A DNA stretch of 64,000 nt from Nannocystis radixulma (GCF_028369095.1 NZ_JAQNDN010000024.1:281350-345349); one strand, 5' to 3'. Shown: positions 3,553 to 63,747, numbered from the stretch's first letter. Program-made: numbers and translations. Notes: generated by a model not told the origin, from the letters alone.

Positions 3553-4114
3553 CCCACACCTCCAACGCTACCACGTTACGTGCGCGGCGAACCGGGTGTC
3601 AACGATTATCGATGCCGATGCATCAACTTTGGCGCAGCGCCGCGTACCTTGCTTCACTTCACCCACGGCCGCTGACAGGTGGTTGTCGCCGGCGTATTGA
3701 TCTCATGGGGCAAGATCCGGCGGTTCCGGTGATTGAACCCATGATGATTGCTCGGCCGGGTGCGGCGATGCCGTGCCGCGCGCGACGCTCTCGGGCCGCG
3801 CCTGTCCGCGAGCGCGCCCGTGCGCGGGCGCGGACGCGGTGGAGTGAATATCGGGCGCGGCTGCGCTCTGACAATGTATATAGTGGTCGATGCTCGTCGA
3901 CGGATCCGGGGCGCCGCAAATGTCATTTGGGGACCGGGGCCGCTCGGGTCGTGACAGTGTTCGGTGGCAGACGGCCCCGGTGGTGCGGTCACCTGTCCGG
4001 GGGCGGGAAGAGACGGTGCGTTCGCAGAATGGTGATCCAAGGGACATGTCTCGAGGACAGCTTCGCGCGGCCCGACGATCACGGACGCCCGCGTCCGGCG
4101 TATGCTCGCGCGTG

Positions 4115-4402
4115 ATGTACTTCGTGCTCCGCTACGAACTCGTCGACGACTACCTCGAACGCCGCACGCCGCTGCGGCCGGAACACCTGGCGCTGGCCCG
4201 CGCCGCCGTGGAGCGCGGCGAGCTGCGCCTCGGCGGGGCGCTGGCCGAGCCGGCCGACGAGGCGCTGCTGGTGTTCCGCGGCCCCGACGGCGCCGCGGCG
4301 GAGGCGTTCGCGCGCGCCGACCCGTACGTCCGCGAGGGGCTGGTGCGGCGCTGGACCGTGCGGAAGTGGACGGTGGTGATCGGCGCCGACTTCGAGGGCT
4401 AG
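4115..4402 (+). CDS. YciI-like stress-responsive protein (dimeric alpha+beta barrel)
   Basis: This is a 95-aa product from an internal ATG of ORF 3890..4402. MYFVLRYELVDDYLERRTPLRPEHLALARAAVERGELRLGGA...DPYVREGLV matches the YciI fold pattern. Confidence 0.65.
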   Translation: MYFVLRYELVDDYLERRTPLRPEHLALARAAVERGELRLGGALAEPADEALLVFRGPDGAAAEAFARADPYVREGLVRRWTVRKWTVVIGADFEG

Positions 4403-4435
4403 CGGTGAACTCCTCGGCTCGAGGCGACCTGGCCT

Positions 4436-5182
4436 TCAGGTCAGGCGGCGACCGCGGTAGACGGTGACCGCGGAGCCCTCGGCGAGGAATGCCGAGCGCG
4501 GCGGGCCGGCGAGCGCGGGGGCCAGGGCCGGGCCGTAGAGGGCGGCGGCATCGAGACGCAGCAGCGGATCGACGCCGGTCCAGACCCGCCAAGGCGGGTG
4601 CTCGACGCGGTACTCGGTGGTCGGACCGCCGGGGCCGGCGACGTAGCCCCAGTAGTGCTCGGCGATGAATTCGGCCTCGCTGCCGGGGGCAGGCGCGGCC
4701 GGCTCGCCGCGGAAGGCGAGGCCGAACTCGTGCCAGCGCCCGCCGACGCGGGCCCCGTAGGCGACCTCGCCGGCGCCCTCGGAGGTGACTGTTCGGACAT
4801 GTCGCATCGGCCAGGCCTCGTAGCGCTCGCCGTAGAGCCGGCGCGCGACCATGGCGACCGCGGCGCGCGGGACGATCTCCTTGAAGAAGGCGACCCCGCG
4901 CTTGTAGCCGTCGGCGCCGACGTGCGGCTCGTCGGGCCGCCCGGGCCGGCGGACGTAGAAGCGCAGGTTGAGCTCCTCGAATTCGCGGTGCCACGGGACC
5001 GGGCAGCCGAGCAGCCGCGTGCGCAGGAACATGAAGCCGACCAGGCTGACGCAGGCGGCGCCGTCGAACAGATCGAGCTCGGTGCCGGGCGGGACGTGTG
5101 GGGCGAGCACGACCGGGTCGACGGCGAAGTTCAGCATGACGAGGTCGCGCCACTCGGCGGTGAGGAACTCGGCGTCGGACAT
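4436..5182 (-). CDS. DUF2071/COG3361-like conserved hypothetical protein
   Basis: Balanced composition from an internal Met (MSDAEFLTAEWRDLVMLNFAVDP...) with W/F/Y-rich conserved blocks. The family assignment is from memory and is uncertain. Confidence 0.5.
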   Translation of the reverse strand: MSDAEFLTAEWRDLVMLNFAVDPVVLAPHVPPGTELDLFDGAACVSLVGFMFLRTRLLGCPVPWHREFEELNLRFYVRRPGRPDEPHVGADGYKRGVAFFKEIVPRAAVAMVARRLYGERYEAWPMRHVRTVTSEGAGEVAYGARVGGRWHEFGLAFRGEPAAPAPGSEAEFIAEHYWGYVAGPGGPTTEYRVEHPPWRVWTGVDPLLRLDAAALYGPALAPALAGPPRSAFLAEGSAVTVYRGRRLT

Positions 5183-5301
5183 GCGCGCGAGCCTACGCGC
5201 ATCGCCGGGTCGGGGCAGCTCGCGCCGCTGAACGGGCGCGGGATGGGGATTGGCGAAGTCGCTTGACAAGCATGCTTTCCATCGGGGAAAGAGTACGCGT
5301 C

Positions 5302-6411
5302 ATGTCCGAAAACGAGCCCAACCGAGTGCGGGCAGCGCGAGAGGCCTGTGGGATGTCCCAGGTCGAGCTGGCGGAGGCGGCGAACCTGTCGCGCCAGAGC
5401 GTGGGGGCGATCGAGGCCGGGCGGGCGACGCCGGCGGTCGACGTGGCGCTGCGGCTGGCGCGGGCGCTGCACTGTCGCGTCGAGGATCTGTTCGCGGTCC
5501 CGTCCGGCGAGCTGCGGATCGAGGCCGAGCCGGCGTCGGCGGTGCCGACGGGGCGGGTGGCCCTGGCCCACGTCGGCGGGCGCTGGGTGGCGTATCCGCT
5601 GAGCGGCGAGGCGATGCGGCTGGCGGCCGACGCGATCGTGGCGCGGGCGCCCGGGCGGCGCGGTCGGGTCGAGGTCGAGCTGGTGCGGCCGCGGGCCGAG
5701 GCGCAGGGCAACCTGGTGGTGATGGGCTGCGCTGCGGCGCTCGGGGTGCTCGCCGATCGGCTGAGCACCCGCGCCGGGGCCGGTCGCTGCGTGTGGCTGC
5801 CGCGCTCGAGCACGCAGGCTCTGGCGGCGCTGGCGGCCGAGCACACGCACGTGGCCGGGGTGCACCTGGTCGACGGGCGCACCGGCGAGGCCAACGTGCC
5901 CGACGTCCGCAAGCACACCGGCGCGGCGCTGGTGCTGATCACGCTGGCGCGGTGGGAGGCGGGGCTTTTGCTCGCGCCGGGCAATCCGCGGAAGATCCGC
6001 GGCGCCGCCGACCTCGGGCGCCGCGGGCTGCGGCTGGTCGCGCGCGAGGCCGGCTCGGGCGCGCGGCGGTTGCTCGAGCGCGAGCTGCAGCGTGCCGGTC
6101 TGCCGGCGACGCTGGCCGACGCGGCGCCGGTGCGGGCCAGCGGGCACCTCGAGGTCGCGCAGGCGATCGCCAGCGGGGCCGGCGAGGTCGGGGTGGCCAC
6201 GCGCGACGCGGCGCTCGCGTTCGGGCTCGAGTTCGTGCCGCTGGCCGAGGAGCGCTACGACCTGGCGATCCCGCGGGCGCTGCTGGCCGACCCCCGGGTG
6301 CTGCGCTTCCTCGACGCGATGACCTCGGCGGCGTTCCGCCGCGAGCTGTCGTCGCTCGGCTACGACGTGCGCGGCTGCGGCGACCGCGTCGCCGAGCTCG
6401 CGGCCGCCTGA
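5302..6411 (+). CDS. XRE-family HTH transcriptional regulator with C-terminal PBP-like (substrate-binding) domain
   Basis: The HTH_XRE signature is MSQVELAEAANLSRQSVGAIEAGRATPAVDVALRLARAL. A roughly 250-aa binding-protein-like domain follows. ATG at 5302. Confidence 0.7.
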   Translation: MSENEPNRVRAAREACGMSQVELAEAANLSRQSVGAIEAGRATPAVDVALRLARALHCRVEDLFAVPSGELRIEAEPASAVPTGRVALAHVGGRWVAYPLSGEAMRLAADAIVARAPGRRGRVEVELVRPRAEAQGNLVVMGCAAALGVLADRLSTRAGAGRCVWLPRSSTQALAALAAEHTHVAGVHLVDGRTGEANVPDVRKHTGAALVLITLARWEAGLLLAPGNPRKIRGAADLGRRGLRLVAREAGSGARRLLERELQRAGLPATLADAAPVRASGHLEVAQAIASGAGEVGVATRDAALAFGLEFVPLAEERYDLAIPRALLADPRVLRFLDAMTSAAFRRELSSLGYDVRGCGDRVAELAAA

Positions 6412-6462
6412 CCTTCGGGACAGGCAACAACCGACGACGACAATCTGACCTTTGGAGCAGTC

Positions 6463-7470: not shown

Positions 7471-7476
7471 GCACCC

Positions 7477-8883
7477 GTGCTGTCGACGACGATCATCATG
7501 GGAGCGGCGCTGGCGACGGCGCCGGCCGAGGAGGTGACCAGCGTGCCGGTGCCCGAGCGCCCGGGACAGAGCGCTGGCCATTCGCCCGGTGCGGCAGGAG
7601 CAGACGAACCTGTCCGAACGGACATTTCGGTGTCAGGGTCGGCGCCGGGCGGCGAGCAGGCTGGAGGTCCGAAGGAGCATGTCCGAACGGACACGTCTCC
7701 TGCAGGGCCGGCAGGGGCCGCTCCGGCCGACCGTGAGAAGACTGTCCCGAAGAGCATGCCCGAACAGCCAGCCGCGAAGAAGCCGCTGCGCGAGCGGTTC
7801 GAGTTCTTCCCGTACGGGTGGATCCGCACCGACGCGACCTGGTACTCGGCGCCGCGCGAGGGCTACAGCAACATCAGCCTGGCGGGGGCGCGGATCGGCG
7901 GCGGGGTGAACGTCGGGCCGGTGACGGCGTTCGTGACGATCGAGGCGGCGCAGGCCAAGGGGCCGCAGCTGTTCGACGCGTTCGTGGCGTGGGCGGCGGC
8001 GCCGCGGCTGCGCCTGCGCGCGGGCCAGTTCAAGGCGCCGTTCGGGCTCCGCTTCAACGCGCCCGACCTGGTCGACGAGCTGCCGCGGGCGCCGCTGTCG
8101 CTGCTGGCGGCCACGCCGGGCCGGCAGGTCGGGCTCGAGGTGGCGTACGACTTCTGGCGCTGGGCCGAGGTGACGGCGGCGGTGTTCTCCGGCATCGGCC
8201 AGAACCGCGAGGCCAACAACACGAAGATCGCGTTCGCCGGCAAGGTCCAGCTCAACCCGCTGGCGGGGCTGCAGCGCGGGCCGAAGCTGATCCTGGTGGC
8301 GTCGGTGTTCGCGTACCACAAGACCAACGGCTTCACGCCGACGGTGACGACCGCGTTCGGGTTCGACTTCTTCCACGGGCTGCCGAGCAGCGGGGCGTCG
8401 CGGCGCTTCACGGCCGGCGGCGGGCTGTTCTGGCGCTTCCTGTCGGCCCGCGGCGAGTTCTTCTACACGTACGACTCGCGCGAGCGCGACACCGACGGCG
8501 ACCCGTTCACGCCCGGCGACCCGCTGCCGCAGTTCGTCGGCGCCGGCGGCTACGCGCAGCTCGGGGCGGTGGTGACGGGGCAGGAGAAGGACCCGGCGAC
8601 GCTGCTGCCGCGGCTGGCGAGCCGACGCGTGCGCGACAGCGCGGTCGAGCTGTCGGCCCGCTTCGAGCGCTTCCGCGTCGGCGCCCGCGACCTGGCCGGC
8701 AACGGCATCACGGCCGCGTCCGCGGGCGTCAACTGGGTGCTCCTGCAGCACCTGCGGGTGTTCGCGGCCGTCAACTGGCAACGGCTCGAGACGGCGGTCC
8801 CGGAAATCCCGCGCGGGACGTCTTGGGGCGTGACCGGCGGGCTCGCCGGCTTCTTCCTCGGCCGCGCCGGCCGCGGCGACTGA
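7477..8883 (+). CDS. Phosphate-selective porin O/P-like outer-membrane protein (5' end uncertain)
   Basis: The body contains AGQFKAPFGLRFNAPDLVDELPRAPLS and alternating beta-strand-like segments. The first roughly 95 codons are encoded by a tripled motif repeat, so the true start may be near 7756. Confidence 0.55.
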   Translation: MLSTTIIMGAALATAPAEEVTSVPVPERPGQSAGHSPGAAGADEPVRTDISVSGSAPGGEQAGGPKEHVRTDTSPAGPAGAAPADREKTVPKSMPEQPAAKKPLRERFEFFPYGWIRTDATWYSAPREGYSNISLAGARIGGGVNVGPVTAFVTIEAAQAKGPQLFDAFVAWAAAPRLRLRAGQFKAPFGLRFNAPDLVDELPRAPLSLLAATPGRQVGLEVAYDFWRWAEVTAAVFSGIGQNREANNTKIAFAGKVQLNPLAGLQRGPKLILVASVFAYHKTNGFTPTVTTAFGFDFFHGLPSSGASRRFTAGGGLFWRFLSARGEFFYTYDSRERDTDGDPFTPGDPLPQFVGAGGYAQLGAVVTGQEKDPATLLPRLASRRVRDSAVELSARFERFRVGARDLAGNGITAASAGVNWVLLQHLRVFAAVNWQRLETAVPEIPRGTSWGVTGGLAGFFLGRAGRGD

Positions 8884-8904
8884 GCGCCAGGCTGCGCACG
8901 GATG

Positions 8905-9137
8905 GCTTCATGGACATGTCTTCATGGTCACGTTCGCTGCGCGGCCACGGTGTCTCGATGGACATGTCTGATGGGACATGGACGATCGGCGGTCGATCCG
9001 GACATGTCTCTTGGGCCATGTAGGCGCAACAATTTTCGCGTCTCGGGCGCTGAGATAGCGGATGCACGTCCGCCTGCATGCGCGGCGTCCGTGCGGCCCC
9101 GATCCGCGGGGCAGATGTCCGCGAGGACATGTTGTGC
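8905..9137. repeat. Cluster of at least 5 GGACATGTC(T/C) motif copies in the intergenic region upstream of the 9314 lipoprotein gene
   Basis: Copies at about 8912, 8960, 8975, 9001 and 9112-9137; the last is an ATGTCCGCGAGGACATGT inverted pair. Confidence 0.6.
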
Positions 9138-19840: not shown

Positions 19841-19994
19841 CGTCCGCCCCTCCGCGCGGGATCTTCGGGGCACGGAGCGGCAGCGTCAATCCGGGAGAGC
19901 GCGGCGCGCCTGCGCACGCGACGACACGAGACCCCGATGGGGTCCGGGAAACCTCAGGGACAGTGTCGCCGGTATGTCCATCAAGACATGTCCT

Positions 19995-20435
19995 TCAAGG
20001 CAGACCACCGGGATGGAGCCCCTCGACTCCGGCGTCGATGTCGAGCTCGAGGACGACGGGCTCGTCGTGGGGGAAGGTCGCGAGCGCGCGGTCCCAGTCG
20101 CAGGTGACAATGGCGGCGAGGCGCACGCCCGCGGGCGAGGGGGCGAGCGTGAAGCCGAGGGCGCAGACGTCCTGGCCGCCGGGGTAGAGGGTGACGGCGC
20201 GGCCGAGCAGGGCGCCGACGACCTCGTCGAGGGAGCGCAGGTCGACGGTCACCTCGGCGCCCACGAGCTCGGCGGGCGCGCGCGGACCCGGCGTCACGGT
20301 GCCGGCCAGCCACAGCGTCTGCCCGGCGTGATCGAGGGCGAGGTTCCAGTCGGCCTCGGGAGCGTGGCAGTGATAGGCCTCGAGCGAGGCGCGGTCCAAT
20401 GTCCAGCTGTCGTGACCGATCCGGATCCGGCTCAT
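19995..20435 (-). CDS. Hypothetical protein
   Basis: A 146-aa product from internal ATG 20435, with balanced composition. A GTCCGAAGAGACAG motif sits immediately upstream. Confidence 0.35.
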   Translation of the reverse strand: MSRIRIGHDSWTLDRASLEAYHCHAPEADWNLALDHAGQTLWLAGTVTPGPRAPAELVGAEVTVDLRSLDEVVGALLGRAVTLYPGGQDVCALGFTLAPSPAGVRLAAIVTCDWDRALATFPHDEPVVLELDIDAGVEGLHPGGLP

Positions 20436-20715
20436 GGCGGCAGGATGGCACAGAGGTGTCCGAAGAGACAGATGGTACGGAGGCCCGACGCCTGCGTCGC
20501 CCAGTCGCGGCTGCAGGCCAGCGACGACATCGTGGCGTGCCTGAGCACGCGCGATGCGAGAGGCTCGCCGATTCTCCACACTCGATGTGTCGCCCGGCAT
20601 TTGGCCTTGCAATTCACGGCTCGCCGGGTGACCGTCGTTGGGACCGCCCGTGCCGATGGTGCCGCCAATCGCACTCCCGCCCCCGACGACTCCGGGCCGG
20701 CAGGGAAGCGCGCGG

Positions 20716-21423: not shown

Positions 21424-22010
21424 GTCGCGCGTGGTTGATTCACCTCGGCGCCTGGCTGCTCGGCTGCATGGTCGCGGTGGCCCTGGCGCCGCTGTTGCGC
21501 GGCTTCCTGTCGCCGTGGCGCGCGATCGGGCCCGACAAGATCGCGATGTTCTCCTCCGACGTGTGCAAGACGAGTCGGTCGGCGCTCGAGCACATCCGCG
21601 GCGATCCCCGGCTGGCGGCGTTCATCGTGCCGGTCCCGGCCGACGGACCCGACGCCGAGACGCCGATCGTCTGCGCCGCGGCGCTGGAGATCCTCGCCGC
21701 CGAGAGCTGGCGGGTGCGCTGGCTCCCCGCAGCGCTGGCGTGCCGGTGGCTCAAGGAGGACGCGTTCGCGGTCGTTCCGGAGCAGGGCGTTCCCACGCCG
21801 TCGTGGTATGTGGCGGGCAGGTTCGTCGACGGTGCCCGGAGCGCCGACGAGGCCGCGGTGTTTGCCGCGCGCGGGTGGCGAATCGAGTGGACCTACAGGG
21901 GGCTGCGTCTCTCGCGGCTCGATGCACCGCCTCCGCCCGAGGAGCCGGCGCCGCCGATCCGTCGGCTCGAGGATCTGGGGAAGAGCTCCTATCGCGACGA
22001 CCGCTGGTGA
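21420..22010 (+). CDS. Hypothetical membrane-anchored protein
   Basis: MSRAWLIHLGAWLLGCMVAVALAPLL TM segment, translationally coupled to the upstream ORF. Confidence 0.45.
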   Translation: MSRAWLIHLGAWLLGCMVAVALAPLLRGFLSPWRAIGPDKIAMFSSDVCKTSRSALEHIRGDPRLAAFIVPVPADGPDAETPIVCAAALEILAAESWRVRWLPAALACRWLKEDAFAVVPEQGVPTPSWYVAGRFVDGARSADEAAVFAARGWRIEWTYRGLRLSRLDAPPPPEEPAPPIRRLEDLGKSSYRDDRW

Positions 22011-22247
22011 GAGGTGCTCAGCCCTCGCATCGCGCGATCTGGAGCGAGCATAGGTGCAGCTGCACGCTTCGTATATGTCCTGAGAGACAGGTTGTGTTCG
22101 GCTGTCACGTGGGTCGCGGGGCACGCGCAGATCCGCGTGTGGGTCGACGACCCCCGTCGTGATGCAGGTCCGTGGTGACGCGGGCGCGGTCCCTGGCTCG
22201 CGCGGCGCGGCCCCGGACCACAGTGTGCGCCCGGGGGAACGACGCCG

Positions 22248-27853: not shown

Positions 27854-28087
27854 CTAGCGCCTCGCGTCGATCTTCTGCGCCAGAGCAGCGAAGGTCTTGA
27901 TCCCCTGGAGCTCGTAGTCGGGCAGCTCGACGTCGAACTCGTCCTCGACGTCCGAGATGAGCTCGACGGCCTGAAAACTGTCGATGCCCAGGCGCTCGAA
28001 CAGGTCGTCCTCGGCGCGGAGCTTGGCCGGGTCGGCGCCGAAGCGCTTGGCGGCGAGACGGATGAGTGTGTCGAGAGTGTCGCTCAT
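27854..28087 (-). CDS. Acyl carrier protein
   Basis: 78 aa with LGIDSFQAVELI around the phosphopantetheine Ser, followed by an acidic helix. Its stop is adjacent to the ligase start. Confidence 0.7.
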   Translation of the reverse strand: MSDTLDTLIRLAAKRFGADPAKLRAEDDLFERLGIDSFQAVELISDVEDEFDVELPDYELQGIKTFAALAQKIDARR

Positions 28088-28129
28088 CGGATTTGCTCTC
28101 AATGTTCTGCTTCTGCTGTCGGGACGGGA

Positions 28130-29250: not shown

Positions 29251-29313
29251 CACCCGAATGTCTGCGGGTCCTGGTCCGTGGTTGGACGCGAGCAGGGCGG
29301 GCGCGAGCAGGGC

Positions 29314-33196: not shown

Positions 33197-33206
33197 GTTC
33201 GAAGGG

Positions 33207-34352: not shown

Positions 34353-34356
34353 GGTG

Positions 34357-36042: not shown

Positions 36043-36070
36043 GGGTGTCCTCCGGTTCCTGTCCGTAAGG

Positions 36071-37694: not shown

Positions 37695-37695
37695 G

Positions 37696-38520: not shown

Positions 38521-38626
38521 GGTGCGGGGGGCGGGGCATCTGCCCTGCGGAGTGGCGGGCGACCGGGTATGTCGCCCGGGACATGTCCGAGAGTGCAGGC
38601 GGCCCGGGGCGGCGGGAGCGCGGGCG

Positions 38627-39289: not shown

Positions 39290-39349
39290 GACCTGTGAAG
39301 TCCCCGGCACCGGCGAGCGTCGTCGAATTATTTTGCGGCGCGCCGGCGC

Positions 39350-40447: not shown

Positions 40448-40454
40448 GGTGTTG

Positions 40455-40500
40455 ACGTGTTCTTCAAGACATGTTCGTGTGAGCATGTCTCGAAGAACAC
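40455..40500. other. Long imperfect inverted repeat (GTGTTCTTCAAGACATG ... CATGTCTCGAAGAACAC) between the lysyl-oxidase-like gene and the downstream gene
   Basis: 17-bp arms with one mismatch and a 10-nt loop, built around two ACATG cores. Possible terminator or processing hairpin. Confidence 0.45.
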
Positions 40501-40503
40501 GGG

Positions 40504-42369
40504 TCACAGCGGCATGCACGCGACCTCGACGCCCGGGTCGCTGCGCAGGAGCGGGGCGGTGAACAGGGAGACCTCGCCGCCGGGCTCGTCGGCGGCGAGC
40601 GGGGCGGGGCAGGTGAAGCGGACGGTGGTCATGGCGCTGTCGGCGACGATGCCGGTTCCGAGCGCGTGGACGTACGTGCACGCGAGCGGGACGCCGAGGA
40701 CGGCGCTGACGGGGCACACGCGCACGGCCATCGGCGCGGCGCCGGCGGGGATCGTGCACCCGAGCTCGACGGTCTCGCCGGCGTTGCAGGCGATGGCGGC
40801 GGTCTGCTCGGCGAAGCCGCAGTTGCGCAGCGGACCCTCCTGCTCGCGGTCGCAGGCGGCGGTGACGTAGCTGCCGACGGCGGGGATCTCGACCGGGCGC
40901 TCGCCGACGTTGTTGTCGTCCCAGCCGCTGCTGAACTCGCACATCGGCCGCTCGATGACGGCGCCGGTCTCGGTCCTGAGGTCGGTGGGCTCGTAGCGGA
41001 GGGCGCCGGCGTCGTCGAGCACGGGGGCGCCCTCGCAGAGGAAGCGATCGGGGTTGGAGGTGAAGACCAGCGGGGCGGTGACGGAGGCGCCCGGGATGGC
41101 GACGTCGGTGACGTCGACCCACTGACAGTCGAGGCCGGCGATGTAGTCGTCGCCCCAGCCGGCGGCGATGCCCTGGTAGTCGCAGCTGCCGTAGGGGGTG
41201 TTGAGCGAGCTGTGCTCGTGGTTGCCGGCGCGCGAGGTGGTCTGGAGGCAGAACGACTGCTTGAAGCCCTCGGCGGGCTCGTCGGTGGCGTACATGAAGT
41301 CGCCGTAGAAGCGGAAGTGATAGTGCTGGTGGCAGTCGCTGTACTCGTAGATGTTGTGGGCGGCGAGCTCGCTGGCGACCTCGCCGAGGTGGAGGTCGGC
41401 GCCGCCGACGTTCTGCACGCTGGCGTCGAACTGCAGCAGGCGGCGCCAGCCGGACCCGCCGACGCAGCCCTCGTGCATGGTGCAGCTGTCGGGGGCGATG
41501 TAGCGGTAGACGAGGCGGGCGGAGCTGCCGATGACGTCGCCGACGACGGCGAGGTCGGGCGCGTCGGGGGTGGTGACCTCGCCGAGGCGCACCTCGTCGG
41601 CGCGCTGCGGGTCCCAGGCGCGCCGCTCGAAGCGGACGACGGTGTCGACGGCGCCGACGTGGTCGTGCAGCGCGTCGACGCACGACTCGGTCGGCCGCGG
41701 CTCGCTGAGGTGACAGCCGTAGTCGGGCGCGACCTCGACGTCGCACTCGTGATCGAAGAAGTCGGCGATGTTCTCCTCGTCGGAGGAGTTGGGCGGGAAG
41801 TCCTCCTCGTCGACGCAGGCGTAGCCGGTACGCTGGCGCAGGTAGTCGGGGTCGAGCGGGAGGACGAAGGGCTCCTCCCAGGTGCCGCCGATGTCGACGA
41901 GCGCGGGCTCGGAGGCGGAGATCGAGGCGAGGTCGCTCAGGAGGGTGCCGGTGAGGGTGTAGTCGATGATGACGACGTCGTGGCCGTCGACGCTGTCGCG
42001 GCGCGCGCCGTCGCCGGCGAACTCGTAGTGAAGGCCGGCGTCGGGCGGGAGCGGCAGCTGCAGCTTGTCGTCGTGGAAGAACTGACGGAAGGCGAGGCGG
42101 TAGTTGGTCATGCGGGTCTGCCGGCGCGCGCGGGCCTCCCAGAACGCGAGCGGCTTGGCGAGGAAAAGCTCGGCGGCGCGGTCGCGCGAGCCCGCGGGGA
42201 ACTCGTCGAGGACGACACCGACGCGGCTGGTCATGACGACGTCGATGAGGGCTCCCGGATCGTCGGCGGTGTCGGCGGGCTCGCACGCGAGGACGAGCGC
42301 GGCGAGCGAGACGGTCATGCAGTCGACGAGCAGTGAGCGGGCGTAATTCGGCTCGGTTCGCGCGGACAT
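40504..42369 (-). CDS. Lysyl-oxidase-like copper amine oxidase lipoprotein
   Basis: NIYEYSDCHQHYHFRFYGDF (LOX copper-binding HxHxH) and CDYQGIAAGWGDDYIAGLDCQWVDVTDV, which parallels the LOX lysyl-tyrosylquinone region. The N-terminal lipobox is LAALVLAC. The start may be 42369 or 42318. Confidence 0.65.
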   Translation of the reverse strand: MSARTEPNYARSLLVDCMTVSLAALVLACEPADTADDPGALIDVVMTSRVGVVLDEFPAGSRDRAAELFLAKPLAFWEARARRQTRMTNYRLAFRQFFHDDKLQLPLPPDAGLHYEFAGDGARRDSVDGHDVVIIDYTLTGTLLSDLASISASEPALVDIGGTWEEPFVLPLDPDYLRQRTGYACVDEEDFPPNSSDEENIADFFDHECDVEVAPDYGCHLSEPRPTESCVDALHDHVGAVDTVVRFERRAWDPQRADEVRLGEVTTPDAPDLAVVGDVIGSSARLVYRYIAPDSCTMHEGCVGGSGWRRLLQFDASVQNVGGADLHLGEVASELAAHNIYEYSDCHQHYHFRFYGDFMYATDEPAEGFKQSFCLQTTSRAGNHEHSSLNTPYGSCDYQGIAAGWGDDYIAGLDCQWVDVTDVAIPGASVTAPLVFTSNPDRFLCEGAPVLDDAGALRYEPTDLRTETGAVIERPMCEFSSGWDDNNVGERPVEIPAVGSYVTAACDREQEGPLRNCGFAEQTAAIACNAGETVELGCTIPAGAAPMAVRVCPVSAVLGVPLACTYVHALGTGIVADSAMTTVRFTCPAPLAADEPGGEVSLFTAPLLRSDPGVEVACMPL

Positions 42370-42646
42370 CGGCGGCTCCTTGAGGGCGACAGGAGAAAGT
42401 GACAGCTGTACGAAGAACAATTGCTTGGTTGACTTCGTTCACGCGACTGTCGCCGCGCGAGCCCAGGAGCGGGTCGCGAGGCCTCGTGTGTCGCGGCGAA
42501 CGATGTTGGACGGCGCCGCTTCTTCGCGGCTCGCCGGCCTGTCAGCGCGTGCGAATGGATCGACGTTCGACGCTGTCAGTGTCGCGAACCATGTTCGGCG
42601 CGCGCGGCTTCGTCTTCGCGGCTCGCCGGCGATCGATCGACGTTCG

Positions 42647-47311: not shown

Positions 47312-48682
47312 GTGGGCGAGATCGAAATTGCCCGGGGCGCGCGGGAGCAGACGAGGACAGCGCCCCGGCGATCTGGTACCGATCTGTTCGACCCGGGGAG
47401 ACGCGTGCCGACGAATCTCTTCGCCTATCCTAACCTGGTCTCCGAGCCAGGTCCCCTCCCGCTCCGCTCGCAGCTCGACCACGACTTCACCGACGCGCTG
47501 GCCCACATCGCCCGGATCCGCACGCGCCGGCGCCTGGAGCGAGACCCGGTGTTCCGCACGATCCGCCCGCAGCTGGAGCGGGTCCTCCGCGGCTTCGAGT
47601 GGGATCTGGAGCCGACGCTCGGCCACTCGCTGGCACCGCGGCGGCCGGGGATCGTCCGCGCGGTCGCCTGGAACGTGGAGCGCGGGAAGCGCTTCGAGGG
47701 CCTGCACACGCTCCTGACCTCCGACCCCGAGCTGACCGCGGCCGACCTGCTGCTGCTGACCGAGGTCGACATCGGCATGGGTCGCTCGGGCAACCGCAAC
47801 GTGCCCAAGGAGCTGGCCCACGCGCTCGGCATGGGCTACGTGTTCGCCAACTATCACATCGTGCTGGTCGAGGGCGACCGCGGCGAACGTGGCCACGGGG
47901 TGCCGAACACCAAGGCGATGCACGGCTGCGCCCTGCTGACCCGCTTCCCGGTGCTGCGCTTCGAGGCGGTCGAGCTGCACGAGCGGCGCGACAAGTTCCA
48001 CGCGACGGAGAAGCGGATCGGCAACAAGCGCGCGCTGCTGTGCGAGCTGCTGCTGCCCGACGGGCCGCTGACGGTCGCGCTGGTCCACCTCGACCCGTTC
48101 GCCGGCCCGCGCGACCGGGCTCGCCACATCCGCGAGATCGTGGCCCGCCTGCGCGAGTTCGGCGGCGAACGCATGCTCCTCGGCGGCGACCTCAACACCA
48201 ACACGTACGACCTGAGCAGCGGCCGCGGCCTGGCCTACAACTTCTTCTACAAGCTGACGCGCTTCGGCATCGAGGGCATGGCGGCCCAGTACATGAAGCC
48301 GGAGGAGCACTTCGAGCGGGCGGTGTTCGCGGCGATGCGCGAGGGCGGGTTCGAGATCGACGGCTTCAACGACTTCACCCGCGGGACCATCTACTACGAC
48401 ATCTACGACCCCGAGATCTTCCGCAAGGCGCTCGACTACATGCCGAAGGCGATGCGCCGGGTGATGTGGACGTACCTCGAGCGCCGGCTGGCGCCGTGGG
48501 GCGGGCGGGTGCCGCTGCGCGTCGACTGGTTCGCCGGCAAGGGGCTGCGCCCGCGCGCGCCGCAGGTCATCGAGCGGCCGGTCGCCGAGGGCAAGCTGGT
48601 GTCGGATCACAACCCGATCCTGGTCGACATCGAGCTCGGACCGGATGGCGAATCGGACATGTCCGAAGAGTCCGATGAGTGA
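47312..48682 (+). CDS. Endonuclease/exonuclease/phosphatase (EEP) family protein; start uncertain
   Basis: AVAWNVERG...LLLLTEVD...SDHNPILVDIEL. The acidic C-terminal tail DGESDMSEESDE is encoded by the dispersed motif. Confidence 0.6.
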   Translation: MGEIEIARGAREQTRTAPRRSGTDLFDPGRRVPTNLFAYPNLVSEPGPLPLRSQLDHDFTDALAHIARIRTRRRLERDPVFRTIRPQLERVLRGFEWDLEPTLGHSLAPRRPGIVRAVAWNVERGKRFEGLHTLLTSDPELTAADLLLLTEVDIGMGRSGNRNVPKELAHALGMGYVFANYHIVLVEGDRGERGHGVPNTKAMHGCALLTRFPVLRFEAVELHERRDKFHATEKRIGNKRALLCELLLPDGPLTVALVHLDPFAGPRDRARHIREIVARLREFGGERMLLGGDLNTNTYDLSSGRGLAYNFFYKLTRFGIEGMAAQYMKPEEHFERAVFAAMREGGFEIDGFNDFTRGTIYYDIYDPEIFRKALDYMPKAMRRVMWTYLERRLAPWGGRVPLRVDWFAGKGLRPRAPQVIERPVAEGKLVSDHNPILVDIELGPDGESDMSEESDE

Positions 48683-48685: not shown

Positions 48686-49711
48686 TCACTCGCGGCGGTA
48701 GGCGCCGAGCCAGGCGCGGGCGTTGCCGCCGAGCACGCGCGAGACCGCGGGGTCGGCGAGCGCGAGGCCGTGGTAGACGCCGGGGGTGAACGCGCCGATC
48801 CGGGCGGTGTGGCGCCAGAACTCGAAGCGCTCGCGCTCGAGCAACCCGAGGTTGGCGGACAGCTGCAGGTCCCACTCGCGCGCGGCGTCGGCCTCGCGGC
48901 CCGGCGCGCGGGTGGTGACGAGGTCGGAGCCGAACAGGAAGCGCTCGGGCTGGACCTCGATCAGGGCGCGCAGGCGATCGCGGTCGGTCTCGATCGCGGT
49001 GAAGCCGTCGACGCCGGGCAGGCCGGCGCCGTGGCTGGTGTCGACGCGCAGCCGCGGGAACTCGCGCAGGAGGCCGGCGAGGCGATCGAGGTCGGTCCGG
49101 CTGCCGCACAGGTGGGCGCACACCAGCTCGAGCCGCGGGTGGGCGCGCAGGAGCCGGGCCAGCTCGTCGCGGTAGCGGACGGTGTTGACGTGGGCGAGCA
49201 CAGGGACGGAGTGATGCTCGAGCCACTCGAACAGCGAGGCGTGGGCCGGGTCGTCGAGCGGGCGCGCGTGCAGCTCCTGGTGGCCGGCGTAGAGCTTGAC
49301 CCCGCGAGCGCCGCGCTGAAACCAGCGCTCGAGCTCGGCGATGCCGACCTCGGCCGGCTCGACGGTGATGAAGGGGAACAGACGATCGCGGTGGTCGGCG
49401 GTGGCGGCGAGCAGGGTCTCGTTGGCCTCCCGCCAGCCGCGCAGGCGGGCGTCGCGGCCAGGCTCGAGGCCGAGGGCGGGATCGAGGTGCGGCGAGGCGA
49501 TGACGACGGCGGCCGCGATCGCCTGGCGGTCGAGCGCGGCCAGCAGCTCGTCGACGGCGCCGCCGACGAGGTGGACGTGGACGTCGACGCGATCGCGGAC
49601 GGCCTCGTCGTCGGTGCTCGTGGGCTCGGTCGGCGTCGGCGCGCTACAGGTCAGCGCGAGGCCGGCGAGGACCGCGATCGCGGCGCGCCACGGTGCGGGC
49701 TCAGCACTCAC
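48686..49711 (-). CDS. Amidohydrolase-2-type TIM-barrel metal-dependent hydrolase, lipoprotein
   Basis: LAGLALTCS lipobox, VDVHVHLVGG metal-binding start, and the HxH ... D pattern. Confidence 0.6.
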   Translation of the reverse strand: MSAEPAPWRAAIAVLAGLALTCSAPTPTEPTSTDDEAVRDRVDVHVHLVGGAVDELLAALDRQAIAAAVVIASPHLDPALGLEPGRDARLRGWREANETLLAATADHRDRLFPFITVEPAEVGIAELERWFQRGARGVKLYAGHQELHARPLDDPAHASLFEWLEHHSVPVLAHVNTVRYRDELARLLRAHPRLELVCAHLCGSRTDLDRLAGLLREFPRLRVDTSHGAGLPGVDGFTAIETDRDRLRALIEVQPERFLFGSDLVTTRAPGREADAAREWDLQLSANLGLLERERFEFWRHTARIGAFTPGVYHGLALADPAVSRVLGGNARAWLGAYRRE

Positions 49712-50321
49712 ACTCGTCCTCGCCTTCGTAGTTGCGCATGGAGATGCTCAGCCGGTACGGGTACTCGGCCGTCGGCGTGTCGCTGTGGACGCGCAGCAGC
49801 AGGCCGTCGGCGTAGTCGTCGCCGGAGCCGGCGAGCGCGAGCACGCCGTCGTCGGCGGTCTGGGCGATCAGCGGCTCGTGGGTGTCGGCGCGGTAGACCT
49901 CGATCGTCATCGCGTTCTCGGGGCCGGCAGCGAGCACCGGCTCCCCGCAGGCGGCGCCGCACAGTCCGGCGTCCTTCACCAGCGCGCGGACGTAAAGGTA
50001 GTGCACGGTGTAGCCGAGGTCGGCGACCTCGATGCGGTACCAGTCGTCCTCGCCAGGGCACAGGTAGGCGTCATGGACCTCGTGCCAGGCCGACGCCTTG
50101 TCGGCCGAGTCCCAGTTCATGTCGGTCGGATCCTCGGGGTCGTCGTTCGGCTCCCACGCGTCGTTGAGCGGGCAGGCGACCGCCCCGCCGGTGTCGTCGC
50201 CGCTGCCGGCGTCGCCGTCGCCGGACGAGAGGTCGCAGGCGGCCATCGACAGCACGATGGCAGCCTGTCGCAAGAGACAGGTCGAACGCGGCGTCGCGGG
50301 CGAGGTCGAGGGGGGCAGCAT
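49701..50321 (-). CDS. Hypothetical acidic lipoprotein
   Basis: IVLSMAAC lipobox and a D/E-rich body with paired cysteines. Confidence 0.45.
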   Translation of the reverse strand: MLPPSTSPATPRSTCLLRQAAIVLSMAACDLSSGDGDAGSGDDTGGAVACPLNDAWEPNDDPEDPTDMNWDSADKASAWHEVHDAYLCPGEDDWYRIEVADLGYTVHYLYVRALVKDAGLCGAACGEPVLAAGPENAMTIEVYRADTHEPLIAQTADDGVLALAGSGDDYADGLLLRVHSDTPTAEYPYRLSISMRNYEGEDECEC

Positions 50322-50469
50322 CGGTCGTGTGCTGCAAACGTGGACTGCCCACGGTGCCGGTCAACCGGTCGCGCCGCGTGGGGGCCGAGGGCAGGGGGGT
50401 GGCCGCCAGCGCGGCGACGAAGGAGCCGGGCGAGCCGCGAGGGGCCGCGCAGGCGCCGCCCGCACGGGC

Positions 50470-50625
50470 GCGCGAGGACATGTCCCGGAGGACAGGCGAT
50501 GCGCGCAACGATGGGTCCGGCGCTCTGCGCGAGCGAGTGGGGGACGCGGCATGTCCGAAGAGACAGAGCGTGCAGCGCCGCCCGCCCTGCGGCGCTTGCT
50601 GTCCCATAGGACATGTGAGGCGACG
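50470..50625. repeat. Three motif copies (GGACATGTCCCGGAGGACAG; CATGTCCGAAGAGACAG; GGACATGTGAGG) in the 308-bp gap between the lipoprotein gene and the SPFH gene
   Basis: Read directly at about 50476, 50551 and 50609. Confidence 0.6.
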
Positions 50626-50629
50626 GGGC

Positions 50630-52201
50630 TCACCGGCCCGGCTGGTTGCTGTCTGCAGGGACAGGCGCGGCCGGCGTGGCGAGCAGGTCGGTGCCGACCT
50701 TGCGGGCGAGCGCGAGGACCTCGCCGATCCCGCGGGCGACCATGGCCGAGGGGTCGGCGCCCTCGCCGAACGAGGTGATCTTGACCTCGCCGAACTTCTG
50801 CGCGAACGCGCCGGCGATCGCGGGCAGGCCGGTCTCGACCAGGGCCATGCGGATCCGGTCGTCGGAGACGAGGTTGTCGACCTCGCGGGCGGCCCGGGCC
50901 ACGGCGGCCCGGACCTCGCCGGCGAGCCGCTCGAGCTGCAGCTCGCGCTCCTTGAGCCGCGCGGCCGCGGCGCTCTCGAGGTCCTTGAGCTCGGTGCTGG
51001 CCTTGCTGCGGTTCATCGCCAGCTGGGCGGCGAGCTCGGCCTCGCGCTGCTGCGTGGTGTGCTTGACCTCGAGCAGCTGGCGCTCGGCCTCGGCGTACTT
51101 GCGCTCGCGTGCGAGCTGGGCCAGCCGCACGGCCTCGGCCTGGGCGGCCTTCTCCTGCTCGATCTGGGTCTTGGCCCGCAGCTCGCCGAGCAGGCGCGCC
51201 TGCTCGCGCGCGCCTCGCTCCTCGGCGAGCTCGGTGGCGGCCTTGAGCTCGGCGAGGGCCCGCGCCTGCTCGCGGGCGGCTCGCTCCTCGGCGAGCTCGG
51301 TGGACGCCTTGAGCTCGGCGAACAGGCGCATCTGGTCGCGCACGCGCTGCTCCTCGGCGGCGCGCGCCTCGAGCTCGTCGCGCTTGGCGGCCTCGGCCAG
51401 CTCGATCTGCATGGTGCGGCTCTCGGCCTGGGCCTTGAGCTCGCGCGTGGCGGTCTCGCTGGCGATCTTGGCCTCCTCGATCTGGCGCGAGGAGGTCGCC
51501 TCGAGCGTGGCGATCTCGCGGGCGCTCTCCATCTCGGCCATGCGCGCGCGCAGGGCCAGCTCGGCGCGGAACCTGGCCTGCATGTCCTGGAACACGGTGT
51601 CCGACAGGATCTGCACGTTCTGGATCTCGACGGTGTCGATGATCACGCCCCAGCCGGTGGCGGTGGTGTCGTCGGTGCGGCCGCGGCCCTCGACGATCGG
51701 CACGAGCTCCGCCATCAGCTCGCGCGCGATCGACTCCTTGCGCCGGGTCATGGCGTCCTCGACGCGCAGGTTGGCGACCAGGCGCCGGGTGGCGCCGACG
51801 AACATCTCGGTGAGGATCTCGCCGAGCTTCTCCTGCGCGCGCTCGCTGTAGGAGAAGTTGAGCATGCGGAAGGTCAGCTCCGGCTCGGCGATCCGGTAGA
51901 CGGCGAGGCCGGTGATCTGCACGCCGACCTTCTCGAGCGTGACCTGATCGGCGGTGAACTGCAGCCGGTTGATGGTGGTCGGGATGACGGCCACGCTGTC
52001 CCACGGCCACTTGAAGCAGCTCGCGCCCTGGCCGGTGCTGGCGCGCCGGATCCGTCCGCGGCGCACGTGGATGAGGTACTCGGACGGCTTGGCGGTGATG
52101 AAGCCCCAACGCTTCATCTTCTCGGGGTCCTCCACGGGCTTGCCCTGGCGCCATTGGCTGTCGTGGGTGGCGGGCGTGGTGGTGGCGGGCTTGGTGGTCA
52201 T
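50630..52201 (-). CDS. SPFH/Band-7 (flotillin-like) protein with long EA-rich coiled coil
   Basis: N-terminal SPFH domain followed by a roughly 150-aa AEERAAREQARALAELKA repeat coiled coil. Confidence 0.75.
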   Translation of the reverse strand: MTTKPATTTPATHDSQWRQGKPVEDPEKMKRWGFITAKPSEYLIHVRRGRIRRASTGQGASCFKWPWDSVAVIPTTINRLQFTADQVTLEKVGVQITGLAVYRIAEPELTFRMLNFSYSERAQEKLGEILTEMFVGATRRLVANLRVEDAMTRRKESIARELMAELVPIVEGRGRTDDTTATGWGVIIDTVEIQNVQILSDTVFQDMQARFRAELALRARMAEMESAREIATLEATSSRQIEEAKIASETATRELKAQAESRTMQIELAEAAKRDELEARAAEEQRVRDQMRLFAELKASTELAEERAAREQARALAELKAATELAEERGAREQARLLGELRAKTQIEQEKAAQAEAVRLAQLARERKYAEAERQLLEVKHTTQQREAELAAQLAMNRSKASTELKDLESAAAARLKERELQLERLAGEVRAAVARAAREVDNLVSDDRIRMALVETGLPAIAGAFAQKFGEVKITSFGEGADPSAMVARGIGEVLALARKVGTDLLATPAAPVPADSNQPGR

Positions 52202-57083: not shown

Positions 57084-57094
57084 GCCGCACCTCC

Positions 57095-60773: not shown

Positions 60774-60831
60774 TCTCTAGCTCTCGGGTTCATGAGGGTC
60801 GCCGCCGTCGACCCCGCCCCACAGGCCCCCC

Positions 60832-61698: not shown

Positions 61699-61724
61699 GC
61701 CGCGAACGCTGGAGCTTTGCGACC

Positions 61725-63290
61725 ATGTCGTCTGTCTTCTCGCATATGCTGACCCGGATCTCTGTCTGCGGCGTCCTCGGGGTGATCGCGGGCGCGTGCT
61801 CGGCGACGCTCGACTTCACCGAGTGCTACGAGGACGCCGACTGTGCGGCCTTCTTCGACGACAACAAGCCGATGTACTGCGCGGCCAACACCTGCCAGGT
61901 CCGCGAGAAAGGCTGCGACGCCAACTCGCAGTGCGCGGGCCTCGGCGAGGCGTTCATCTGCGCCACCTCGAGCGCGCCGCGCGAGTGTGCGTCGACCGAG
62001 ACCGACGAGTGCGGCGCGCCGATCTACCCCGGCGGCGAGGTCAGCGACGACGTCGCGTTCATCGGCGTGATGCTGCCGAAGACCGGCGCCGACGCGGCGC
62101 TCGGCGAGGCGATGGAGAAGGGCGTGCTGGCGGCGGTCGAGGAGTTCAACGGCTCCGGCGAGCTGCCGAACGGCGACAAGATCGCGCTGGTGGTCTGCGA
62201 CACCAAGAGCGAGGTCGCGTCGGCGACGTCGGCCGGCCGGCATCTCGGCGACACGCTGGCGATCCCGGTGCTCATCGGCCCGGTCGACGACGTCGAGTTC
62301 ACGGCAGTGGTCGACCAGGTCACGTTCGCCCCCGGCGTCAACGCGTTCACGATGGGGCCGATGGTCACGGCCGACATGAGCGAGCTCGACACCTCGGCCA
62401 ACCTGGTCTTCCAGGCGATGGCCGGCGCCAAGTACCAGGGCCCGGCGCTCGGCGCCCGGATCGGCGCCGACTTCATGGGCGTCCCCGACGCGAACGCGGT
62501 GCTGCTGCTGGCGGAGGACGCGTACGGGCTCAGCCTCTACAACGCGGTGGCGACCGAGGAGACCGGCGGTCCGAGTCAGATCCCGCAGGTCCCCGGCAAC
62601 CAGTTCATCGCCTCGTACCGCGGGCTCGACGACGCCACCAAGGGCGCAAAGGCCAAGCTCGACGCGGCGCTCACGAGCTTCGACATGCCGCAGATGTTGG
62701 TCCTGCTCGGCCGCGCCGAGGTCGCCGACATCATCAAGTACTACAAGACCACCGGCGCCCCGCTGCCGCAGAAGATCTACGTGCCGCAGCGGGCGATGGC
62801 CGCGGTCGCCGCGCTCAAGGACAAGGACCTCGCCGGCGTCGTCGTCGCCATCACCCCGGATCTCGATACCCCGCAGCTCGCCAAGCTGCGCACCCGCCTC
62901 GGCGAGTCGTCGCTGGCGCCCGAGGCCGGCCTCGCCTACGACGCGACGATGGCGTCGCTGATCGGCATGGCCGCCGTGAAGTCCGGCGACATCGTCGTCG
63001 GCCTGCGCGTCGCCGACGCGATGGAGAAGCTGTCCGACAAGTCCGGCGTGCCGGTCGACTTCGGCACGGGGCCGAAGATGTTCGTGCCCGCCGCGCTGTC
63101 GGCGTTCGCCACCGGCAAGTCCGTCGACCTCACGGGCATCACCGGGCCGCTCGACTTCGACGCCAAGGGCGAGGTGTGCAGCCCGCTCGCGGCCCACACG
63201 CTCGACGAATCCGGCGAGGCGTGGGTGAAGACGGCCGTGTTCACGCCCGCGTGCCCCGACACCACCGGCGAGTGGGCCGCGGTGCCCTGA
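61725..63290 (+). CDS. Type-I periplasmic-binding-protein lipoprotein (Leu/Ile/Val-binding-like) with Cys-rich N-terminal module
   Basis: VCGVLGVIAGAC lipobox (alternative ATG 61746), a Cys-rich 80-aa module, then a PBP-1 fold. Confidence 0.6.
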   Translation: MSSVFSHMLTRISVCGVLGVIAGACSATLDFTECYEDADCAAFFDDNKPMYCAANTCQVREKGCDANSQCAGLGEAFICATSSAPRECASTETDECGAPIYPGGEVSDDVAFIGVMLPKTGADAALGEAMEKGVLAAVEEFNGSGELPNGDKIALVVCDTKSEVASATSAGRHLGDTLAIPVLIGPVDDVEFTAVVDQVTFAPGVNAFTMGPMVTADMSELDTSANLVFQAMAGAKYQGPALGARIGADFMGVPDANAVLLLAEDAYGLSLYNAVATEETGGPSQIPQVPGNQFIASYRGLDDATKGAKAKLDAALTSFDMPQMLVLLGRAEVADIIKYYKTTGAPLPQKIYVPQRAMAAVAALKDKDLAGVVVAITPDLDTPQLAKLRTRLGESSLAPEAGLAYDATMASLIGMAAVKSGDIVVGLRVADAMEKLSDKSGVPVDFGTGPKMFVPAALSAFATGKSVDLTGITGPLDFDAKGEVCSPLAAHTLDESGEAWVKTAVFTPACPDTTGEWAAVP

Positions 63291-63308
63291 GGTTCAGCGG
63301 CGCAACAG

Positions 63309-63340
63309 CATGACCGCCGGGACATGTCCTGGCGGTCATG
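63309..63340. terminator. 32-bp near-perfect palindrome CATGACCGCCGGGACATGTCCTGGCGGTCATG followed by T-rich run, 19 bp after the PBP gene stop
   Basis: 13-bp arms around the ACATGT core, then GCTTTCTGC. Confidence 0.4.
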
Positions 63341-63379
63341 TCGCTTTCTGCGGGTCGGTCGCCGGCCTGGAGCGTCACC

Positions 63380-63670
63380 ACCCCGGCAGGTACGGCGAGA
63401 GGCGTCGAGGATCGCGTGCGCGAGGACGCGGGGCCGTGGGGAGCGGGGAGGGGCGGCCTCGCGGCGGCGGCGCGGGTCCCTCGCGACGCGAGACCTGCCA
63501 TGCCACATGCTCGACGCGGATGAGCGATGGGGCATGTCCGAGGATTGATCCCGCGTCTGCGCGTGAGGCATGGGGCCCCTCGCTGCGTCCCACTCCGCCG
63601 CCGCGAGGCCGCCCCAGAAGAGTGTGGCGGGCCCCGCTTGTCGTGAGGCGGAGGTGGTCGCTTCGAACGA
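63380..63670. repeat. Second copy (about 290 bp, single-unit version) of the composite repeat found at 28.3-28.6 kb
   Basis: About 95% identical by eye to 28290-28590 and includes the GGGGCATGTCCGAGGATTGATCCCGCGTCTGCGCGTGAGGCATGGGGCCCCTCGCTGCGTCCCACTCCGCCGCCGCGAGGCCGCCCCAGAAG core. Confidence 0.7.
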
Positions 63671-63715
63671 GGGCGTCGCTCGATCGGCAGGGGGGGTCTT
63701 GTATGCCCGAACGAA

Positions 63716-63747
63716 CAGGGCCGTGGGGACATATCCTCACGGCCCTG
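63716..63747. terminator. Hairpin CAGGGCCGTG-GGGACATATCCT-CACGGCCCTG followed by TCTTTTCGC; likely bidirectional terminator 24 bp after the stop of the minus-strand edge gene
   Basis: 10-bp GC stem, a loop containing a degenerate ACATGTCC motif, and a T-run. Confidence 0.4.

Follow-up and report, generated by a model that had tools for sequence, protein, structure and literature searches.

A 64,000-nucleotide stretch of the Nannocystis radixulma genome (GCF_028369095.1, NZ_JAQNDN010000024.1:281350-345349; ~71% GC; hereafter the window) carries a family of short palindromes that recur in strict 14-bp phase, gather just past stop codons and are restricted to Nannocystis-group myxobacteria. Arrays of these units keep their positions in related genomes while turning over in sequence, and they show no covariation, no strand asymmetry and no downstream T-tract. 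The explanation that we favour, although we hold it at somewhat less than an even chance, is that the arrays are a clade-specific gene-end punctuation element, read by sequence by a putative dimeric factor that would bind the phased dyads side by side.

Phased palindromes at gene ends

Counted on both strands of the window, ACATGTCC has 22 matches against 1.19 +/- 1.16 in dinucleotide-preserving shuffles, and GGACATGT/ACATGTCC is the most over-represented 8-mer under an order-2 Markov model, in agreement with a preliminary description of this DNA that had placed the motif far above base-composition expectation. The full palindrome GGACATGTCC is found five times (0.10 expected); when matches to it are scored, 5 reach 10/10, 14 reach 9/10 and 46 reach 8/10, versus 0.02, 1.8 and 24.8 expected, respectively. 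The unit consensus is GGRCATGYCC, a 10-bp palindrome whose best-kept part is CATG, with CCTG or CAGG as a frequent variant at the centre, and array DNA forms local AT-rich islands (~50% GC) in the 71% GC genome. Nearly all the coordinates given in the preliminary description carry the motif or a variant with 1-2 mismatches (39963, 40487, 50551 and 50611 through the arrays tabulated below), and exact 8-mers missing from its list lie at 31981, 33191 and 55471. It had also called the copies mostly intergenic, which is borne out on a gene map based on GC content at third codon positions (GC3): units matching at least 9 of 10 positions number 11 in 9.2 kb of spacer DNA versus 0.26 expected (~42-fold), and 8 in 54.8 kb of coding DNA versus 1.56 expected (~5-fold).

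The spacing of the units is equally distinctive, 22 pairs in the window lying 14 bp apart against at most three at every other distance from 1 to 40, and TGTCC-N4-GGACA occurring seven times versus 0.03 expected. The same period extends as a ladder through 816 kb of related DNA—161 pairs at 14 bp, 60 at 28, 51 at 42, 20 at 56, 7 at 70 and 10 at 84, over a background of ~2 and with the seeding pair left out of the counts. Arrays comprise 1-9 units in strict phase, separated by a weakly constrained 4-nt spacer in which S-W-W-S is favoured (GAAG, CTTC, CAAG, GAAA, GAAC), and the element is best described as a series of abutting 14-bp palindromes, WR-GGACATGTCC-YW, equal to the 10-bp unit plus its spacer. 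The arrangement ACATGTCC-N4-6-GACAG, recorded previously, does exist, but as one part of this stricter register, which had gone unnoticed. Arrays occur about once per 2-2.5 kb of the window, corresponding by extrapolation to thousands of sites per genome.

Replication slippage, or a minisatellite-like process, was considered as the source of the register and rejected. Identical adjacent spacers make up 2.8% (1.2% expected) and identical alternate spacers 5.0% (1.4% expected), an excess so small that slippage accounts for less than ~5% of arrays, although some arrays are clear tandem copies. A separate case is a ~3-kb gene-free stretch in Nannocystis sp. RBIL2 (locus L102, 2886-6141) composed of 36-, 69-, 84- and 96-bp tandem repeats, the longer of which embed phased pairs of a variant unit, GGACCTGTCC.

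Placement relative to genes was assessed in 96 loci plus the window, using GC3-based gene calls. Arrays of at least two units are intergenic in 293 cases and 'coding' in 140, though 84.5% of the DNA is coding, and their density falls from 5.8/kb in convergent spacers to 2.2/kb in co-directional and 1.0/kb in divergent ones. Array edges peak +5 to +14 bp past stop codons, with 95 of 229 lying within 0-19 bp, and distances to start codons are flat, without a proximal peak. Even in co-directional spacers of at least 200 bp the arrays crowd the upstream stop (21, 12, 7, 12, 5, 10, 6, 5, 3 and 2 by decile), the stop-proximal array lying no more than 20 bp from it in 47% of these spacers. In the window, which was not chosen by the motif, 14 of the 31 gene 3' ends followed by at least 30 bp of spacer carry a site (~45%). 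This stop-proximal, divergent-poor distribution rules out a general role as promoter operator and places the family among gene-end elements.

Comparison of related genomes indicates positional conservation combined with turnover. In pairs at 92-96% identity, arrays stand at orthologous positions and the changes fall mostly in spacers; across 17 orthologous arrays, ascertained in a single genome, divergence is 8.8% in units versus 22.9% in spacers (p=0.01) and 0-4% in the CATG core. An array follows the 3' end of an MqnA-like gene in five lineages, the MqnA proteins being 66-96% identical to that of the window. Between loci L057 and L095, an array of ~7 units keeps its register and cores, with most non-core positions differing and with single-unit shifts.

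The family is clade-specific. A phased-pair scan of 185,579 species genomes (596 Gb) with the query GACATGTCC-N4-GGACATGTC listed 102 matching stretches, and among these ~95 belong to Nannocystis (N. exedens, N. pusilla, N. punicea, N. bainbridge, sp. RBIL2 and metagenome-assembled genomes), to Nannocystaceae or to unclassified metagenome-assembled Myxococcales. Only ~7 of the listed matches lie elsewhere, versus ~9 by chance on our own estimate (596 Gb / 4^18). These outside matches were tried as a pointer to the binding-protein family and abandoned, since heterogeneous flanking genes and a chance-level count make them an unreliable guide. A phage origin was rejected as well, a single isolated pair being present on only one viral contig. 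Syntenic relatives retrieved via the MqnA-like gene differ widely in array content: arrays are dense in L103 (MqnA protein 96% identical to the window's) and present in L110 (79%), L108 (68%) and L107 (66%), almost absent from the fully syntenic metagenomic relatives L104 and L106 (81%; 83% nucleotide identity) and absent from Enhygromyxa salina (L109; 58%). No alternative k-mer is enriched in L104 or L106, so there is no substitute motif in these loci.

A palindrome outside the clade deserves separate mention. In the Pseudomonas oryzihabitans group, the space between a GAF/PAS sigma-54 activator gene and an operon divergent from it, for a GFO/IDH/MocA oxidoreductase, contains a perfect and conserved double palindrome, GACATGTCCAGCTGGACATGTC (L071 2646-2667, L098 6019-6040, L093 6512-6533). 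This palindrome has no relation to the Nannocystis family, and is possibly the upstream binding site of that activator.

Punctuation, selfish repeat or structure

The signal in the arrays is one of sequence constraint, symmetric and acting position by position within a rigid register, such as a sequence-specific dimeric reader of duplex DNA would impose, although a hairpin-binding factor may act instead. Conservation applies to every position on its own and equally to both strands, from which we propose that readout of the arrays is by sequence, with duplex DNA as the most likely form. The arrays would thus act at gene ends in a manner comparable to repetitive extragenic palindromes (REP) and bacterial interspersed mosaic elements (BIME) of Escherichia coli, or to the mycobacterial TRIT (Tuberculosis Rho-independent terminator) motif. 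Dimers of a putative clade-specific factor would occupy neighbouring dyads side by side, successive dimers being rotated by ~120 degrees at 14 bp per unit, so that three units would span four helical turns. Transcripts from either direction would have their ends marked or insulated by such binding, whether through a roadblock or termination, through 3'-end protection, or through relief of supercoils between converging genes. Constraint on the register and the CATG core keeps the arrays in place; they change by point turnover in spacers, by gaining or losing 14-bp units and, occasionally, by duplications that arrays bound. A more specific version, a protein-read punctuation code in which an abundant clade-specific dimeric protein polymerises on 14-bp-phased GGACATGTCC arrays as a sequence-specified, bidirectional and factor-dependent terminator or insulator, or as a supercoil-relief station, replacing the hairpin and U-tract terminator in a 71% GC genome, is one that we put forward as doubtful, though the duplex-level symmetry, the missing covariation, the strict register and the stop offset point toward it.

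Several observations weigh against punctuation by a dimeric factor. No gene for such a factor emerged from an all-against-all clustering of 698 open reading frames (ORFs) from the sampled loci, in which no families recur near the arrays beyond ones common in myxobacteria (kinases and histidine kinases, response regulators, SDRs). About half of the window's gene ends are without a site, the gene calls are our own approximations, a perfect pair was the basis on which the Nannocystis loci were selected, and the sample in the divergence test is small. Furthermore, arrays occur patchily in close relatives, being nearly missing from L104 and L106 despite their synteny, many arrays differ by indels at ~85% identity, and some bound segmental duplications, all of which is typical of selfish or neutral repeats. 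Finally, a fold with z<-2 is obtained for 59-74% of intergenic arrays, versus 4% of control spacers, and a hairpin role in RNA or single-stranded DNA may exist, the palindromic consensus hiding strand information.

The rival that survives best, which we regard as unlikely but worth serious consideration, is a selfish origin: the arrays would be REP-like repeats, mobile or self-propagating and without host function, spread by a RAYT-type or other enzyme, by gene conversion or by slippage, and gathered past stops and between convergent genes because insertions there are least harmful. REPs share this location bias (PMC3733652), and, in addition to the patchiness and the array indels, such an origin fits the gain and loss of units in 14-bp steps, the obvious tandem copies, the array-bounded duplications, a gene block absent from L104 and flanked by direct CATGTCCGAAGAG repeats, and the unit found at the apex of a dispersed palindromic element of 271 bp. 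However, only 10 of each 14 bp are conserved, and the spacers and flanks are unrelated between copies, so that no transposable unit can be defined; the units also carry neither a GTAG/CGTC tag nor strand polarity. A tblastn search with E. coli RayT found no RAYT-like ORF in 0.99 Mb of sampled loci (best E-value 0.49, a weak negative), and no transposase-like family recurs near the arrays in these loci. Selfish spread is also hard to reconcile with the slower divergence of units than of spacers, with the persistence of the array at the MqnA gene end across five lineages, and with the sharp +5 to +14 edge distribution, seen even in long spacers. Were the arrays merely selfish, they would still be unusual as a repeat family spreading or persisting without a recognisable mobile unit.

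A role for the arrays as sites of a nucleoid-associated or topology-managing protein at converging transcription, rather than as transcript-end signals as such, seems to us improbable on balance. It would parallel the pairing of BIME-2 with gyrase or of BIME-1 with IHF, since REP/BIME elements have published links to both proteins (PMC2817692, PMC3733652), and it agrees with the maximum of array density between convergent genes, with the AT-rich character of the islands and with their duplex-level symmetry. The stop offset is, however, tighter than topology alone needs, and no protein has been identified. This possibility overlaps with the punctuation reading, and sequence data cannot separate the two.

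We give slightly less weight still to pure nucleic-acid hairpins, acting as factor-independent bidirectional intrinsic terminators or as stabilisers of mRNA 3' ends. Their attraction lies in the placement right past stops and in convergent spacers, and in the ability of two neighbouring units to form a 10-bp stem with a 4-nt loop. The two hairpins singled out in the preliminary description, 63309-63340 and 40455-40500, indeed far surpass shuffles in foldability (z = -5.6 and -5.75), as reflected in window sites at 63300 and 40445 that fold very well, but the other four of six tested sites do no better than shuffles. The foldability of arrays overall follows from a palindromic consensus that makes pairing automatic: among 620 unique unit pairs, positions on the two sides of the spacer do not covary, the Watson-Crick fraction equalling the product of the marginals (z -1.5 to 2.4). 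Compensatory changes spotted by eye (TGCTC/GAGCA, TGCCC/GGGCA) were rejected, this shuffle-controlled null result showing that they had been cherry-picked. When arrays are oriented by their flanking genes, unit positions display no strand asymmetry of the G.U type (p 0.03 to 0.3), there is no T enrichment beyond 3 nt past the arrays, and Rfam has no match in the window, including its 28-29 kb repeat block; the arrays therefore do not behave as canonical intrinsic terminators with a GC-rich hairpin and a U-tract. Mycobacterial RNA polymerase is reported to need such a tract (PMC3993855). Structure, moreover, needs neither a fixed CATG-centred sequence nor a strict 14-bp register. The earlier suggestion of a terminator or processing-hairpin family thus agrees with the position of the arrays but not with the lack of T-tract, asymmetry and covariation. 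Canonical terminators themselves are scarce where they were scanned for, with nine weak sites versus 3.9 expected in the 20 kb between 36 and 56 kb of the window.

Promoter operators of a global transcription factor, the possibility placed first in the preliminary description, are very improbable. A minority of copies do lie 20-150 bp upstream of starts (4042, 7606-7698, 9111, 20453), the dyad ATGT-N8-ACAT matches the canonical operator of the PadR family (PMC3506622), and outside Nannocystis the double palindrome occurs in promoter regions; and the earlier statement that copies stand 20-80 bp upstream of start codons does apply to a few (4042, 7689, 20458). Nonetheless, there is no start-proximal peak overall, spacers between two starts are avoided and have the lowest array density, thousands of sites per genome are extrapolated, and arrays of up to nine abutting units are atypical of operators. 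DNA-uptake signals, like the DNA uptake sequences (DUS) of Neisseria or uptake signal sequences (USS) of Haemophilus, enriched by biased uptake and recombination, can be given hardly any credence: a short 10-bp core with unrelated flanks, a very high copy number and a clade-specific, patchy distribution recall them, but they should be enriched in coding DNA too and have no fixed register, whereas the arrays, with up to nine units, keep a strict 14-bp register, coding enrichment is only ~5-fold against ~42-fold in spacers, and competence is not known from Nannocystis.

How transcription units end in high-GC bacteria is a standing question, for which a motif +5-14 bp past stops at ~45% of spacer-bearing gene ends offers a concrete and testable handle. 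The motif also serves as a marker for Nannocystis-group DNA in metagenomes, and as a landmark for calling gene ends and improving the annotation of the 11-13 Mb genomes of this group.

Sites in the window and neighbouring rearrangements

Sites of the motif catalogued in the window (coordinates from its first nucleotide)
Feature	Position	Strand	Context
Single unit GGACATGTCT followed by cgagGACAG	4042-4060		66 bp upstream of YciI-like gene (4112-4402), divergent spacer
Isolated 9/10 unit	4795-4804		Within DUF2071 gene
Degenerate unit CGTCATGTCC	5298-5307	+	ATG at 5302 is the likely start codon of an XRE/PBP_like regulator
Two phased pairs, 7606-7629 and 7675-7698, each with TGTCCgaacGGACA	7606-7698		Co-directional spacer upstream of porin-like gene
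Four phased pairs: 8912-8935, 8960-8983, 9000-9023, 9111-9134	8912-9134		Cluster begins 29 bp past stop of porin-like gene (7756-8883)
Phased pair	19970-19993		Ends 1 bp from stop of minus-strand gene 19995-20435
Degenerate pair GGTGTCCgaagAGACAG, spacer-centred dyad intact	20453-20476		~20 bp upstream of the start at 20435
Pair GTATATGTCCtgagAGACAGGTTG	22071-22094		61 bp past stop of 21435-22010
Unit GGGCATGTCC at apex of ~271-bp palindromic dispersed element	28433-28442		Second unit copy at 63530-63539
Other isolated coding units	31979, 33191, 37236, 55471		33191 at start codon of 31715-33196
Pair	38565-38588		Convergent spacer past MqnA-like gene; array here in five lineages (window, L103, L110, L107, L108)
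Pair	39431-39454		Inside hypothetical ORF 39350-40447; conserved in L103
Pair	39960-39983		Inside hypothetical ORF 39350-40447; conserved in L103
Three-unit array, part of 20-bp-stem palindrome	40453-40490		13 bp past stop of lysyl-oxidase-like gene; position conserved in L103
Perfect unit	48655-48664		In final 28 nt of Exo_endo_phos gene; CATGTCCGAAGAG recurs at 50550
Three sites: 50476-50499, 50547-50570, ~50595-50618	50476-50618		11-150 bp past stop of minus-strand gene 50630-52201
Three-unit array, strong palindrome	63306-63343		Convergent spacer, 15 bp past stop of 61725-63290
Array of 3-4 units	63713-63764		Ends a few bp from stop of minus-strand gene 63771-63998

The isolated coding units are in part chance or coding coincidence. 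At 5302 the preliminary description had a copy of the motif supply the ATG of an XRE regulator, and this ATG, within CGTCATGTCC, does open a plausible helix-turn-helix protein (MSENEPNRVRAAREACGMSQVELAE...). The hypothetical ORF at 39350-40447 (365 aa, high GC3, no Pfam match) has a counterpart in L103, called there at 389 aa, that keeps both internal phased pairs together with their spacers.

Gene content of the window is myxobacterial (sigma-54 activator with GAF domain, DUF4388, lysyl oxidase, Ser/Thr kinases, ADYC domain). An operon at 26138-36748, common to all fetched relatives except the Enhygromyxa locus, encodes an acyl-AMP ligase, a carrier protein, an enoyl-CoA hydratase, a second AMP ligase, a polysaccharide pyruvyl transferase, epimerase/reductases and a HAD hydrolase, and its product may be a lipid or polysaccharide-modifying one.

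Two blocks of the window are absent from L104, namely 38627-42420, with two hypothetical genes and the lysyl-oxidase-like gene, and 48686-50629, with an amidohydrolase and a hypothetical gene. The second is bounded by the 13-bp direct repeat CATGTCCGAAGAG, at 48657 and 50550. Within the operon, a 1.2-kb non-coding, repeat-rich block (28088-29313) separates the PP-binding (27854-28087) and enoyl-CoA-hydratase (29314-30087) genes, which abut or overlap in L104, L106, L108 and L110. It consists of 57-bp (three copies) and 60-bp (four to five copies) tandem repeats plus the ~271-bp element, a long imperfect palindrome with the GGGCATGTCC unit at its apex. The element recurs at 63394-63664 with 96% identity and, inverted, at 28927-29148 with 78% identity; Rfam has no match to it, and the Nannocystis loci contain no copy. 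That units mark insertion junctions was considered as a general rule and rejected, because they are present at the 48.7-50.6 kb block and absent at the 28.1-29.3 kb block.

Between N. pusilla and N. exedens (L050 3150-3850 versus L070), a ~150-bp segment comprising a gene 3' end and its array is repeated in tandem, with three copies in one species and two in the other, suggesting that arrays promote local duplication. They are likely a hotspot of local duplication and of gene-block indels.

Relation to known repeat and operator families

In the searchable literature we found no description of this motif family, nor of relevant REPs in Nannocystis or other myxobacteria. The geometry of the arrays recalls the metboxes bound by MetJ, which are abutting palindromes with an 8-bp period, present in a handful per genome and at promoters: in both cases abutting palindromes give two alternating dyad axes and unit number varies, implying cooperative side-by-side binding of dimers, but the Nannocystis period is 14 bp and the sites, thousands by extrapolation, lie at gene ends. 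DUS are often paired at terminators, and DUS/USS and HIP1 share with the Nannocystis family a short conserved core, unrelated flanks, very high copy number and clade specificity, but neither has a strict tandem register or so strong a bias to stop-proximal spacers. A further lead, and a lead only, comes from PadR-family regulators, whose canonical operator is ATGT-N8-10-ACAT (PMC3506622), since the spacer-centred dyad ATGTCC-N4-GGACAT reads ATGT-N8-ACAT. PadR sites are, however, single promoter operators, whereas the Nannocystis sites are arrayed at 3' ends with CATG, not ATGT/ACAT, as their best-conserved core; no PadR gene was seen in the window.

The mycobacterial TRIT motif offers a parallel in placement. 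It is palindromic, genus-restricted and located at stop codons, and the authors of the RNIE paper that describes it inferred an unknown factor from its sequence conservation (PMC3152330). Both families occur in high-GC hosts poor in canonical terminators—in mycobacteria these are reported as under-represented (PMC3993855)—and both are genus-restricted, conserved, palindromic and hence bidirectional, and narrowly placed around stops. TRIT, however, is one longer hairpin with ~147 copies centred at ~-8, inside the coding end (PMC3152330), whereas the Nannocystis arrays are multi-unit and phased, with a mode +5 to +14 past the stop. As the motif sequences are unrelated, the likeness is one of analogy, not homology.

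The closest known kind is the REP/BIME family, and the earlier suggestion of a REP-like element holds in this respect, for the high copy number, the position outside genes, the placement downstream of ORFs and in convergent spacers, the regular arrays and the clade restriction, but not for unit length or the GTAG/CGTC tag. Both are high-copy and mainly extragenic with occasional copies within genes (PMC3733652, PMC2817692); REPs sit downstream of ORFs, where the flanking genes are unidirectional or convergent (PMC3733652), as the Nannocystis arrays mostly do; and in both, regularly spaced units form arrays whose sequence is lineage-specific and variable among relatives. The REP unit is, however, a 20-40-nt imperfect palindrome with a conserved stem-loop, in contrast to a Nannocystis unit of 10-14 bp, a perfect and symmetric dyad with unrelated flanks that lacks the tag, polarity and stem covariation; BIMEs have defined linker motifs where the Nannocystis arrays have unconstrained 4-nt spacers in a strict 14-bp register; and the sampled 0.99 Mb yielded no RAYT, a weak negative. 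The architecture of the Nannocystis family—10-bp dyads that follow one another in a rigid 14-bp register, their spacers being free—is apparently new, and distinct from that of REP/BIME, TRIT, DUS and HIP1.

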